From contig JAGQJT010000001.1 of NCBI GenBank assembly GCA_020430505.1, forward strand, positions 7,629 to 71,628: DNA of 64,000 nt, written 5' to 3'. Positions 7,079-24,108 of this stretch are shown here, one piece after another; the stretch's first letter is position 1, and each line of letters starts with the position of its first letter. The DNA is from Nanobdellota archaeon. Lineage in GTDB: Archaea > Nanobdellota > Nanobdellia > Pacearchaeales > GW2011-AR1. The notes below the pieces were generated by a model. The model did not search any database. It saw nothing but the letters and a program-made list of their open reading frames with translations, and had not been told where the DNA came from. The position numbers and the translations under genes were made by a program.

Positions 7079-7855
7079 TTATTTCTTCTTTGTAGTTTTC
7101 TTTTTAGAAGTCTTCTTCTTAACAGTTTTCTTTTTTACAGTTTTTTTCTTAGGAGTTTTCTTCTTTGTAGTTTTCTTTTTAGAAGTCTTCTTCTTAACAG
7201 TTTTCTTTTTTACAGTTTTTTCGGAAGCTTTCTTTTTAACCCTTCTTGCAATCTTTGCAGCTTCTTTCTTCTTTTCTTTTTCTTTTTCTGCCTTTTTTAT
7301 TTCTTTTAATTTAATCTTTTCTAAAGAGATTTTTTCTTTTTCAATTTCCACATCTATTGCATCCATTTTTTCTTTTATTTTTGAAAGATTCCTTTCCAAA
7401 TCTTTTATTACTTTAGAACTATCTTTTACAGTTAACAAATCCCCACACTCTTCACAAGCAAAATCTTTTGCTAAAGCTTCTTCTTCTTCCATTTCAATAT
7501 TGCATCTTTCACAAACATAAAATCTTTTTTCGTTTCTTTCCCTTATCTCCTGAGTCAATTCATCAAATTTTTTAGAATAAATTTCTCTAAGAAATTCAAG
7601 ACACTTTAAAATTTCAAATTTCCAAAAGTAGGTATACCATCCCTTTTTTTTATCTTTCTTCCTGATGGATGAAACCAAACCAAAATTAGAGATTTTGTAA
7701 AGAATATTCCTAGTTTGATTTATAGTAACATCCAATTTTTTTGCAATTATAAATTCATTTACATGTGAACCAGAATTAAGAAGGTCTGCAATTGGCTCTG
7801 CTTGCTTACCGACAACAATTGTAACTATTTCTCTTAATAGATTATCTAACATCAC
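7079..7855 (-). CDS. tfe: transcription factor E (TFE-alpha) with a ~90-aa lysine-rich KKKT-repeat C-terminal tail
   Basis: Winged-helix segment NQTRNILYKISNFGLVSSIRKKDKKKGWYTYFWKFE. Zn ribbon CERC...CEEC. The tail KKKTVKKKTSKKKTTKKKTPKKK is not part of canonical TFE. Confidence 0.85.
   Translation of the reverse strand: MMLDNLLREIVTIVVGKQAEPIADLLNSGSHVNEFIIAKKLDVTINQTRNILYKISNFGLVSSIRKKDKKKGWYTYFWKFEILKCLEFLREIYSKKFDELTQEIRERNEKRFYVCERCNIEMEEEEALAKDFACEECGDLLTVKDSSKVIKDLERNLSKIKEKMDAIDVEIEKEKISLEKIKLKEIKKAEKEKEKKKEAAKIARRVKKKASEKTVKKKTVKKKTSKKKTTKKKTPKKKTVKKKTVKKKTSKKKTTKKK
7083..7221. repeat. 75-bp tandem duplication inside the tfe lysine-rich tail
   Basis: The copy starting at 7083 and the copy starting at 7158 are identical for at least 63 nt (ttcttctttgtagttttctttttagaagtcttcttcttaacagttttcttttttacagttttt). 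Confidence 0.9.
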
Positions 7856-21244: not shown

Positions 21245-21318
21245 AGCGGAGGACGGGACTCGAACCCGTGAATATCTGCTCTGCAGGCAGACGCAGTAGC
21301 CGCTGTGCCACCTCCGCA
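21245..21318 (-). tRNA. tRNA-Cys (anticodon GCA)
   Basis: Acceptor GCGGAGG/CCTCCGC, anticodon stem TCTGC/GCAGA, loop CTGCAGA, T arm ACGGG-TTCGAGT-CCCGT. Confidence 0.85.
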
Positions 21319-21375: not shown

Positions 21376-22263
21376 ATGGTGGAGTGGTATGTTTTGTCTT
21401 TAATCTCTGCAGTTTTCTCAGCAGGAGCCGCAATTTCCCAAAAGAAAATTCTCTTCAAAGAATCAGCACTAGGATTTTCATTACTAGTGGCATTGTTTAA
21501 TTTAATCTTAGCGATACCTTTCTTTTTCTTCGTTGAGTACACTACACTAACAACCTCGGGAATATTAGTTTTATTCTTAAAATCCACATTAGGAGCAATT
21601 GCATTCTTATTTGTAATGCTTGGAATAAAAAATTTAGAAATAAGTGAAGCCTTGCCTCTTTTAGTTTTGGCACCTGGATTGGTTGCAATATTTGCATTCA
21701 TTTTCTTAGGAGAAAACATAAACAAAATAGAAATCTTAGGATTAATTCTTTTGATAATTGGAACATACCTTCTATCCTTAAAAGAAAAACAAAAAATAAA
21801 AACTCCTTTCAAAAAAGCCTTCAGTAAAAAAGGCCATTATTACATAATATTCGCTTTGATTATTTTTACCATAACTTCAATCTTAGATAAAGCAGTTTTG
21901 AACAAATTCAAAATTCCTCTAAACGCATTTATGGGTCTTCAGCATCTTTTCTTCGCAATAGTTTTCATAGGATTACTCTTTGTCACAGGAAAGAAAATTG
22001 AATTTAAATCTGCACTAAAAAATTCATGGGCATGGATTGCATTGGTTGCACTTTTTACAATTACCTATAGGTACACCCATCTTTTGGCAATAAAGAGCAC
22101 TTCAGTTGCGTTGGCCTTGTCAATAAAAAGGATTTCGGTATTTCTCGCAGTTGCCGTGGGAGGTGCATTGTTCAAAGACAAGAATCTCATAAGAAAAATA
22201 ATTGCAACGGTCATAATAATTGCAGGAGCATTATTGATAATCAACGGGCAAAACTGGTTATAA
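21376..22263 (+). CDS. EamA/DMT-superfamily transporter
   Basis: 295 aa, about 10 TM, two-fold internal EamA-like repeat pattern. Confidence 0.75.
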   Translation: MVEWYVLSLISAVFSAGAAISQKKILFKESALGFSLLVALFNLILAIPFFFFVEYTTLTTSGILVLFLKSTLGAIAFLFVMLGIKNLEISEALPLLVLAPGLVAIFAFIFLGENINKIEILGLILLIIGTYLLSLKEKQKIKTPFKKAFSKKGHYYIIFALIIFTITSILDKAVLNKFKIPLNAFMGLQHLFFAIVFIGLLFVTGKKIEFKSALKNSWAWIALVALFTITYRYTHLLAIKSTSVALALSIKRISVFLAVAVGGALFKDKNLIRKIIATVIIIAGALLIINGQNWL

Positions 22264-23077
22264 GCGAAATTCCTTTCGCCCTTTTAGTCAAACCTTTTTT
22301 TGCTTCAGGAATATCTTCCCTGAGGGATTCTTTCAAATAATTCAAAACTTTTTTCCTTCTTTTTCTCAAACTCTCTGTTGAATTCACACAAGGTCCACCA
22401 ATACAAGCCCCGACACAAAAATTACAATCTAAAAATCTGGTATTTTTATCAGGCTTATCAAGGAATTTCATCACTCGACTTATTCCATCAATAACTTTTA
22501 TTTCTTTTTTCTTGAGGACATTTTTCAAATGAGCTGTCTTAGAAAGCCCTCCTCCAAGAGGATAAACTTTGGTATAATCATTGTAAAATTTATCAAAGTG
22601 CATCTTTTTCTTTGCATTTAAATTAATTTTATTTTTTTCAAAAAGAGATTTTAATTCTCTGTAATCTACAACATAATCAACAAATTTGGATTTCTTCGCT
22701 TCTTCTTTTTTATAATTACAAGGAGAAATAAACACAGTCTTATGTTTAGGATATACCTTTTTACAAATTTTGGACATGGCAATCATCGGACTATCAACTT
22801 GAATTAAGTTTTTTTTATATTGAGGGTATTTATCCAAAACAACACTAACAACTCCAGGACAAGCAGTAGAAATAAAAAAACCCTCTTTTTGTAATTCTTT
22901 GTAATAGGCCTGATTAACAAGTTTTGCTCCAAAAGTCAACTCAACAACCTTATCAAAACCAAATTTTTTCAAGCCGTAAATCATTCCAGGATATGGAAAA
23001 TCCACGACGAAACTTGGAGCAACCATTGCCACAAATTTTCCTTTCAAAGGGAATTTCAGTTTACGATCTTTTTTCAT
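22241..23077 (-). CDS. minimal [FeFe]-hydrogenase-like protein (H-domain only)
   Basis: 278 aa. FISTACPGVV (cf. TSCCPGW), FISPCNYKKEEA (cf. MPCxxKxxE), FCVGACIGGP (cf. CxGGCxxGGG). N-terminal VAMVAPSF...LKKFGFDKVVELTFGA. Confidence 0.6.
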   Translation of the reverse strand: MKKDRKLKFPLKGKFVAMVAPSFVVDFPYPGMIYGLKKFGFDKVVELTFGAKLVNQAYYKELQKEGFFISTACPGVVSVVLDKYPQYKKNLIQVDSPMIAMSKICKKVYPKHKTVFISPCNYKKEEAKKSKFVDYVVDYRELKSLFEKNKINLNAKKKMHFDKFYNDYTKVYPLGGGLSKTAHLKNVLKKKEIKVIDGISRVMKFLDKPDKNTRFLDCNFCVGACIGGPCVNSTESLRKRRKKVLNYLKESLREDIPEAKKGLTKRAKGISLITSFAR

Positions 23078-23085
23078 ATTAAAAA

Positions 23086-23160
23086 TGCCCCCGACAGGAT
23101 TTGAACCTGCGACCTACTGCTTAGAAGGCAGTCGCTCTATCCAGGCTGAGCTACAGGAGC
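23086..23160 (-). tRNA. tRNA-Arg (anticodon UCU)
   Basis: Acceptor GCTCCTG/CGGGGGC (2 G-U pairs), anticodon stem ACTGC/GCAGT, loop CTTCTAA, T arm GCAGG-TTCAAAT-CCTGT. Confidence 0.85.
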
Positions 23161-23183
23161 ATACTAAGATATATCCAAAGAAC

Positions 23184-23199: not shown

Positions 23200-24108
23200 T
23201 TAAACCTGCACCCAGTACAAATCATCAATCAAAGAGGATTTTTTGAATATTTTTGTAGCTTCTTTCAAAACAGGTTCTGTATTTTTTTCATACCTCTGAG
23301 AAATGTGAGTCAAAATTAATCTCTTAACATCTGCACGTTTTGCAATTTCAGCAGCCTGCCCAGAAGTCAAATGATATCTTCCTCTAGCAAGCTCTTCTTT
23401 TCCATGTTCAAAGGTGGCTTCGCAAACAAGAACATCAGCATTCTTAACAAAAGGAACAATATTTTTATTCAATTTAGTATCTAAAACAAAAGAAACTTTT
23501 TTGCCTTCCTCCTCAAAAGTCAAATCCTTAGATTCGTATTTCTTTCCCTTGAAAACAACATCTTTTCCTTGTTTCAATTTTTGCAGCAAAGGTCCAGGGG
23601 GCAAACCTGAAGATTTCAATTTCTTCTTATCAACTCTTCTTTCTCCCTTTTGGATGAATGAATATGCATTACAAGGCACGTTGTGAAACATTTTTCTTGC
23701 CTCAATGTAAAAATCACCATTCTCAAAAAAAACTCCTTCTTTAGTAACCTCAACTACCTTTATAGGAAACTTGTTTACAAAAGCAAAAGTCTTAAACATA
23801 TTTGCAAGATATTTCTTAGTTCCTTTTGGACCATAAATTGTCAAACCTTTTTGATATTCACTAAAAGCTAAAGTTTGCATCAACCCAGGTAACCCCAAAA
23901 CGTGATCTCCATGCCAATGCGTAATCAAGATTTTTGTAAGTTTGCAAGGATTTAACTTCGCTTTTCTAAACTGTCTTTGAGTTCCTTCGCCACAGTCTAT
24001 CAAAATATTTTCTCCACCATAAGTTAAGAGAATACTCGTGTGATTTCTATCTGCAGTTGGAATCGCACCAGAGGTTCCCAAAAAGAATAGTTTTATTTTC
24101 TCTGCCAT
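23200..24108 (-). CDS. rnz: ribonuclease Z (tRNA 3' endonuclease)
   Basis: 302 aa. FLGTSGAIPT, metallo-beta-lactamase motif ITHWHGDH, C-terminal LILTHIS. Confidence 0.9.
   Translation of the reverse strand: MAEKIKLFFLGTSGAIPTADRNHTSILLTYGGENILIDCGEGTQRQFRKAKLNPCKLTKILITHWHGDHVLGLPGLMQTLAFSEYQKGLTIYGPKGTKKYLANMFKTFAFVNKFPIKVVEVTKEGVFFENGDFYIEARKMFHNVPCNAYSFIQKGERRVDKKKLKSSGLPPGPLLQKLKQGKDVVFKGKKYESKDLTFEEEGKKVSFVLDTKLNKNIVPFVKNADVLVCEATFEHGKEELARGRYHLTSGQAAEIAKRADVKRLILTHISQRYEKNTEPVLKEATKIFKKSSLIDDLYWVQV

Follow-up and report, generated by a model that had tools for sequence, protein, structure and literature searches.

We analyzed hydA, a gene carried by a 64,000-nt stretch of contig JAGQJT010000001.1 (assembly GCA_020430505.1 of a Nanobdellota archaeon, positions 7,629 to 71,628), which is hereafter called the window; coordinates are those of the window unless another contig or locus is named. 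hydA (22241-23077, minus strand) is an intact open reading frame (ORF) extending from ATG to TGA. Its 278-aa product, HydA, is assigned from its sequence to the H-domain-only, group E "ultraminimal" [FeFe] hydrogenases on the basis of architecture, cluster ligands, phylogeny and host, and its catalysis is predicted by analogy to the enzyme of Ca. Forterrea multitransposorum (hereafter Fm). We consider it probable that HydA disposes of fermentation reductant as H2, the electrons coming from ferredoxin reduced by a two-subunit 2-oxoacid:ferredoxin oxidoreductase (OFOR). HydA is intact and unremarkable within an already published family, and hydA itself adds little that is new: the family was named and modelled in 2024, when one of its members was also assayed, and HydA is a further, uncharacterized one. 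This minimal hydrogenase family is common to DPANN archaea and to bacteria that belong to the candidate phyla radiation (CPR).

Domain architecture and fold of HydA

HydA has a computed size of 31.9 kDa and an isoelectric point (pI) of 9.9. The sole Pfam domain identified is Fe_hyd_lg_C (PF02906; E 9.9e-42, 143.7 bits), with residues 14-229 matching profile positions 2-245 of 245, that is, the full-length profile. The protein includes seven Cys residues, the earliest of them in the translation being residue 73; as no Cys precedes this position, HydA has no accessory Fe-S domain. The initial annotation of the window had described a protein of 278 aa devoid of ferredoxin-like accessory domains, and both the domain search and the Cys distribution agree with that description. 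With the NCBIfam models, HydA scored 131.5 for group B (cut-off 450) and 63.2 for group A (cut-off 405.95), the aligned part being in both cases the H-domain only.

An AlphaFold2 model was obtained from an alignment including 69 homologues (predicted local distance difference test, pLDDT, 85.5; predicted template modelling score, pTM, 0.85). When this model was compared with the PDB by Foldseek, the 50 best matches were all [FeFe] hydrogenase H-domains (50/50), with query TM-scores (TMq) ranging from 0.68 to 0.77. Structure modelling had been proposed initially as a check, and a confident H-domain fold is what it returned. The features of the HydA sequence far exceed chance expectation.

Phylogenetic position and comparison with known hydrogenases

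Homology searches yielded 1,037 matches at E <= 1e-3 (90% clusters). The best 120 of these 1,037 are all 258-285 aa long and share 59-77% identity with HydA; names found among the homologues include Pacearchaeota, Nanoarchaeota and "iron only hydrogenase large subunit-like protein." Group E was defined by Greening et al., Cell 2024 (PMC11216029), who describe its members as monomeric, with a mean length of 286 residues and hosts belonging to Iainarchaeota, Micrarchaeota and Nanoarchaeota; the group is presented there as a monophyletic clade of archaeal enzymes and as the sister of sensory group C. HydA is 61% identical over its whole length to a 288-aa protein, hereafter Na, encoded by CABMGN01 sp902385635 (contig CABMGN010000008, L016:5998-6864), and 43% identical over 260 residues to Fm (286 aa; closed chromosome CP045477, L097:3959-4819). 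In maximum-likelihood (ML) trees HydA and Na form a clade (Shimodaira-Hasegawa-like approximate likelihood ratio test, SH-aLRT, 97). This pair belongs to a larger clade of 81 Nanoarchaeota rows (SH-aLRT 99), which is itself nested in a clade of minimal proteins split from the long sensor-type proteins (SH-aLRT 98). The suggestion made initially that HydA could count among the very small [FeFe] hydrogenases reported for DPANN archaea is supported by these identities and by the clade. Groups A, B and D entered this placement indirectly, A and B through NCBIfam model scores that lie far below the cut-offs. The host is archaeal: neighbours of hydA in the window include transcription factor B (TFB), an Sm protein and an archaeal-type glycyl-tRNA synthetase (GlyRS), and Pacearchaeota, Woesearchaeota or Nanoarchaeota appear in the titles of the nearest loci.

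Available biochemical data on the family refer to Fm. According to PMC11216029, Fm contains 4.2 Fe per protein and one [4Fe-4S] cluster, shows the Fourier-transform infrared bands of the H-cluster after treatment with [2Fe]adt, and catalyzes in vitro a bidirectional reaction biased to H+ reduction. HydA shares with Na and Fm an H-domain-only architecture (278 aa, vs. a mean of 286), the four cluster Cys, the lack of accessory clusters and of the relay Cys, a genome without HydEFG and a DPANN host, and does not differ from them in any essential respect.

The nearest multidomain relatives, with 31-38% identity, combine Fer4, the H-domain and the Fe-S domain PF04060, which is the architecture of group C, and are fused to methyl-accepting chemotaxis protein (MCP), histidine-kinase, sigma-54-activator or PAS modules. 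Like the putative sensory enzymes of groups C and D (e.g., T. maritima HydS and TamHydS), HydA has replaced the relay Cys, M353 and M497 (numbering of CpI) and has kept the 2Fe pocket; in TamHydS, the relay position is occupied by Ala (PMC11803613). In contrast to them, HydA lacks Fer4, PF04060, PAS, kinase, MCP and sigma-54 modules and falls in a separate clade (SH-aLRT 98). The N-terminal Fer4, C-terminal Fe-S motif and PAS or signalling output by which group C is recognized are all absent. The smallest [FeFe] hydrogenase characterized before, Chlamydomonas reinhardtii HydA1 (group A1, 457 residues), also carries the H-cluster only, without F-clusters, and receives its electrons straight from ferredoxin; its structure (3lx4) matches the HydA model with a TMq of 0.68. 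Unlike HydA, it has the relay Cys in a TSCCP motif, the Glu/Ser/Arg proton pathway, both M353 and M497, and a dependence on HydEFG. The loops of HydA are shorter than those of HydA1.

H-cluster motifs and active-site residues

Residue equivalences were taken from HMMER alignments to solved structures (TmHydA 7p5h, and CpI 4xdc with its variants). The three H-cluster motifs translate exactly as quoted in the initial annotation, and all of them lie on the minus strand. P1, FISTACPGVV (22847-22876), includes A72, equivalent to the proton-relay residue C299 of CpI, and C73, equivalent to C300, the first ligand of the [4Fe-4S] part of the H-cluster ([4Fe-4S]H). P2, VFISPCNYKKEEA (22697-22735), provides S118, C120, K123 and E126 at the positions of CpI M353, C355, K358 and E361. 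In P3, FCVGACIGGP (22391-22420), C221 corresponds to CpI C499 and C225 to C503, through which the 2Fe subsite is bridged; shortly before the motif, N219 replaces CpI M497. The four cluster Cys and the P2 Lys that had been recognized are thus aligned with their CpI counterparts, and so are the substitutions (relay Cys to Ala; P2 and P3 Met replaced) that had been pointed out with them. Two other elements of the pocket could be located: A20-P21-S22 (23012-23020, minus strand; from translation and alignment) corresponds to CpI A230-P231-S232, which we take to be the contacts to the distal CN ligand, and S96-P97 corresponds to CpI S323-P324.

Residues C73, C120, K123, E126 and C221 are invariant in 129 of 129 members of the minimal family; C225 is present in 128, the lone exception being a gap. 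When the minimal family and the sensor-type relatives are taken together, A20 and P21 are invariant and S22 nearly so, and the complete set (A20-P21-S22, S96-P97, P119, K123, E126 and the four Cys) is invariant or nearly invariant. This conservation of the residues that line the 2Fe pocket is an argument for selection acting on the site that would accommodate the 2Fe subsite.

Position 72 is variable. It is occupied by Val in 52, Ala in 12, Thr in four and Pro in one of the 69 close homologues, and by Val, Pro, Ala, Asn or Thr, and in no case Cys, in the 129 minimal-family members from named genomes. Absence of the relay Cys is therefore a family-wide trait, and not the peculiarity of HydA that the Cys-to-Ala change had first seemed to be. 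The residue is Ala in HydA, Val in Na and Asn in Fm; since Fm is active with Asn at this position, an active enzyme can do without the relay Cys.

Some features distinguish the Nanoarchaeota subclade, HydA included, from Fm. S118 and N219 stand where Fm has Gly and Leu, and two additional, mostly conserved Cys, C105 and C230, are present. The non-ligand residue C105 (22765-22763) is kept in 66 of the 69 closest homologues and C230 (22390-22388) in 63; this conservation does not extend to Fm-type, CPR or sensor-type relatives. Another feature of HydA is the loop FDKFYNDYTKVYP (22550-22600, residues ~160-175), in which F161, D162, F164, Y165, N166, T169 and P173 are almost invariant in the family. 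Residues 166-173 of this loop are the sole low-confidence stretch of the AlphaFold model (pLDDT <50). The loop comes before a GGL motif that aligns with the H-cluster-lining F417-G-A-T-G-G-V region of CpI, and it may act as a mobile lid above the cofactor insertion site.

Proposed electron partners and function

Neighbour clustering was performed on 80 related hydA loci. OFOR genes lie within 6 kb of hydA in many of them (beta subunit in 32/80, alpha/gamma in 30/80), and a gene for an AMP-forming, acetyl-CoA-synthetase-like acyl-CoA synthetase is found nearby in 18/80. In seven relatives a ferredoxin of the Fer4_13 type is encoded no more than 5 kb from hydA, and in one of these the distance is 12 bp. 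We also sampled 81 genera of the same GTDB family, nine genomes of which carry a PF02906 gene. All nine HydA-positive genomes encode OFOR, vs. 37 of the 72 genomes in which HydA is absent (p = 0.004 in a one-sided Fisher test without phylogenetic correction); in four sampled genomes one contig carries both OFOR and hydA, separated by 2-7 kb. The genome to which the window belongs encodes both a two-subunit OFOR (C22:81539-84373) and a 58-aa, single-cluster Fer4_13 ferredoxin with a pI of 9.0 (C3:5636-5812).

On these grounds, the following mechanism is proposed. C73, C120, C221 and C225 would hold the [4Fe-4S] cluster of the H-cluster, C225 bridging it to a 2Fe subsite accommodated in a pocket predicted to be lined by A20-P21-S22, S96-P97, K123 and E126. 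As accessory clusters are lacking, electrons must be delivered straight to [4Fe-4S]H by a soluble carrier; the 58-aa ferredoxin, which OFOR would reduce, is the most likely candidate. Proton reduction to H2 by HydA would in turn re-oxidize the ferredoxin. With the group A relay absent, protons must reach the bridgehead amine otherwise; because the group E active site has been modelled as solvent-exposed (PMC11216029), the route is probably short. Taking together the genomic association with OFOR and ferredoxin and the properties of Fm, ferredoxin-dependent H2 evolution is the best-supported mechanism. OFOR, a small ferredoxin and HydA would then constitute a minimal pathway by which the host, a DPANN archaeon of Pacearchaeota/Woesearchaeota type and an episymbiont with a 0.75-Mb genome, gets rid of fermentation electrons as H2; the DNA sequencing runs indicate activated sludge as its source.

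Maturation, proton transfer and the experimental record weigh against this proposal. The genome (745,721 bases in 31 contigs, 89.8% complete) contains one PF02906 gene, and no match to HydE or HydG was found anywhere in it. The HydF model detected generic GTPase domains only across the whole genome, scoring at most 46 bits vs. a cut-off of 325.55. The lack of hydE, hydF and hydG noticed initially in the window extends hence to the whole assembly, although at 89.8% completeness the absence of the maturases is likely rather than certain. HydG was above its cut-off in none of the 81 sampled genera (0/81). With HydE and HydG absent, no known pathway accounts for assembly of the 2Fe subsite. As regards proton transfer, the group A pathway consists of Cys, Glu, Ser, Glu and Arg relay residues, as listed in PMC11803613. 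In HydA the relay Cys (CpI C299) is replaced by A72, CpI E279 and E282 have no counterpart, and R286 and S319 are replaced by E61 and I92 (HMMER alignment, counted from C299/C300). The TSCCP signature of group A is consequently missing together with its accompanying residues, and the entire group A proton pathway is absent from HydA. The OFOR and ferredoxin genes of this genome are on other contigs than hydA; moreover, the two proteins show no evident charge complementarity, HydA being basic with a pI of 9.9 and the ferredoxin likewise with a pI of 9.0. No RNA sequencing run carrying hydA was found, and the expressed [FeFe] hydrogenases of a Woesearchaeota metatranscriptome belong to group A3, not to group E (PMC11606122). 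Finally, in the portion of PMC11216029 available to us the active group E enzyme named is Fm and not Na, the closer relative of HydA; Na is noted there solely as expressed with poor solubility, and the failure to observe activity in the native host is stated as a limitation.

PMC11216029 reports that maturases are likewise absent from most archaea with [FeFe] hydrogenases, the closed Forterrea genome included. For ordinary Fe-S assembly the genome of the window encodes SufB and SufC. Only three radical-SAM (S-adenosylmethionine) proteins are encoded, namely Elp3, TYW1 and a SPASM protein of family TIGR04084. The latter was considered as an unconventional maturase and rejected: TIGR04084 is above the cut-off in 13 of 81 genomes, only two of which are among the nine HydA-positive ones, and hence shows no association with HydA. 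The enzyme may be active in vivo with a 2Fe subsite that is assembled by a HydEFG-independent route or scavenged from the host, a trait that the ultra-small symbionts of both domains would share, given that the relay-less minimal enzyme is found in DPANN and CPR alike; we advance this tentatively, as it could about equally well turn out to be wrong.

The main rival explanation follows from the maturase problem. It states that no 2Fe subsite is formed in vivo and that HydA is a plain [4Fe-4S] protein, such as an electron carrier or a redox-responsive partner, the activity of its relatives being latent and revealed by the synthetic cofactor. The missing HydE and HydG of this genome and the missing HydG of the 81 genera favour it, as do a radical-SAM set limited to Elp3, TYW1 and a SPASM protein whose occurrence is not associated with that of HydA, and the lack of observed native activity acknowledged in PMC11216029. 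A bare [4Fe-4S] protein nevertheless hardly explains why residues specific for the 2Fe subsite (the equivalents of K358, E361, A230-P231-S232 and S323-P324) should be kept by purifying selection, invariant or nearly so, in 129 members from two domains of life, all of them in maturase-poor lineages. Linkage to OFOR and ferredoxin, moreover, suits a terminal electron sink. We regard this explanation as unlikely. It is still less likely that HydA is a working hydrogenase operating mainly in H2 uptake or as an H2 sensor, like the "sensory" enzymes of group C; a sensory derivative was one of the options suggested in the initial annotation. The closest long relatives (31-38% identity) are indeed multidomain proteins of the group C type, the active-site signature is shared with group C (no relay Cys, M353 changed to Gly or Ser, M497 to Leu or Asn), and H2 oxidation is the direction preferred by the group C enzyme of T. 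maritima, as stated in PMC11216029. However, HydA has neither Fer4 nor PAS nor any other output or signalling domain, no regulatory neighbour is conserved, and Fm, which belongs to the same clade of minimal proteins, favours H+ reduction. No obvious electron acceptor chain was apparent in the parts of the genome examined, and the OFOR with which hydA is associated produces reductant.

The other derivation suggested at the outset, a Nar1/NARF-like factor of the cytosolic iron-sulfur assembly (CIA) type instead of a hydrogenase, was rejected on architecture, host and clade, and we hold it to be highly improbable. Nar1/NARF proteins are eukaryotic, act with CIA partners and bind a second [4Fe-4S] cluster through an N-terminal, ferredoxin-like four-Cys motif; their 2Fe-pocket residues are degenerate. 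What they have in common with HydA is the Pfam domain, the lack of maturases and the lack of the relay Cys. HydA lacks the N-terminal Cys motif (0 Cys in residues 1-72), comes from an archaeal host with no eukaryotic context, has prokaryotic hydrogenases as its best sequence and structure matches, and clusters with Fm, which binds the H-cluster and makes H2. The equivalents of K358, E361, A-P-S and S-P in the 2Fe pocket are retained in HydA and invariant in the family. The reading as a group E hydrogenase fed by OFOR-reduced ferredoxin is hence the one that we favour.

Minimal hydrogenases in CPR bacteria

A scan with divergent minimal proteins recovered loci from CPR bacteria (L088-L165, e.g., L103, L106, L115, L137, L091, L099 and L147). 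H-domain-only, relay-less hydrogenases of 240-309 aa are encoded in several CPR/Patescibacteria groups: Saccharibacteria, Staskawiczbacteria, Dojkabacteria, CPR3, Absconditabacteria, Gracilibacteria and SR1. Twenty-one of the CPR hydA genes are open only under code 25 (TGA = glycine), with 3-11 in-frame TGA codons each. In the four code-25 hydA genes that were mapped, 15 of 27 aligned TGA sites fall on columns with a Gly majority, several of which are invariant. As these frames are open only under code 25 and their TGA sites fall on Gly columns, hydA is native to code-25 bacteria. The part of PMC11216029 available to us does not mention CPR in connection with group E, and no description of the CPR copies was found in a literature search. 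These copies widen the set of genomes in which H-cluster assembly without HydEFG and proton delivery without a known relay can be studied comparatively.

In the ML tree, CPR and DPANN clades are interleaved, the Iainarchaeota clade of Fm grouping with the code-25 clade with an SH-aLRT of 100. The approximately unbiased (AU) test rejected a single archaeal clade when all contig labels were accepted (p = 0.007), but not when five suspiciously labelled contigs were removed (p = 0.15) or when the bacteria were restricted to code-25 members (p = 0.55). Non-monophyly of archaeal group E was therefore discarded as a conclusion, its support being lost once the doubtful labels are dropped. As the outcome of the AU test depends on contig labels, we claim neither a direction nor a number of transfers.

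Some public labels deserve comment. hydA genes of contigs labelled Fusobacteriaceae, "bacterium" or Paceibacterota (L031, L032, L054 and L069) are nested deep within the Nanoarchaeota clade, and that of L054 bears the archaeal tRNA-Arg and tRNA-Cys flanks; these four are probably archaeal contigs that were mis-binned or mislabelled. Several metagenome-assembled genomes named "uncultured Candidatus Peribacteria" carry a code-25 hydA (L091, L096, L099, L100, L105, L107, L108, L116, L121, L127, L146 and L149). In the public records of these bins, an error probably affects either the Peribacteria label or the assumed genetic code; hydA of L146 is poorly matched even under code 25. Within the GTDB family of the window, a 483-aa frame (G065:C243:263-1090) on a contig of ~1 kb matches PF02906 with 311.6 bits, a score that stands apart from the ~130-144 bits of the minimal type. 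It probably corresponds to a bacterial group A-type gene introduced through contamination.

Genomic context of hydA

hydA is situated in a tRNA-flanked block of housekeeping genes. A tRNA-Arg(UCU) gene identified by ARAGORN (23085-23161, minus strand) is co-directional with hydA and ends ~7 nt (TTTTAAT) before its ATG, a spacing too short to accommodate a separate hydA promoter. hydA may be transcribed together with tRNA-Arg and freed by 3' processing of the latter. Among 52 loci of relatives, 14 have this tRNA adjacent to hydA, seven of them co-directional (including Na, L016:5912-5987) and seven divergent. Further upstream lies an ORF for RNase Z (23200-24108, minus strand), which is found near hydA in 31 of the 80 related loci; this is conserved synteny, and RNase Z is not a functional partner of hydA. 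On the other side, an EamA-family transporter gene (PF00892; 21376-22263, plus strand) is convergent with hydA, the 3' ends of both genes overlapping by 23 bp (22241-22263); it is near hydA in 23 of the 80 loci. A tRNA-Cys(GCA) gene, also predicted by ARAGORN (21245-21317, minus strand), forms the downstream edge of the block tRNA-Arg - hydA - (EamA) - tRNA-Cys, and is located downstream of hydA in many relatives.

A housekeeping block of this type surrounds hydA in about a third of the 80 loci (RNase Z in 31, Sm protein in 26, EamA in 23) and also includes ribosomal protein S8e, TFB and GlyRS. In another third, a second context is found, with hydA within 6 kb of OFOR. The locus of the window has the first context, whereas many relatives are located beside OFOR, and Fm beside Suf genes. 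In the region around Fm (L097:2932-8341, CP045477), the upstream gene encodes a radical-SAM protein orthologous to the TYW1 of the window's genome. Downstream of Fm, and on the opposite strand, genes for a NifU/IscU-like protein, SufD, SufB and SufC are located, a context unlike that of the Nanoarchaeota loci.

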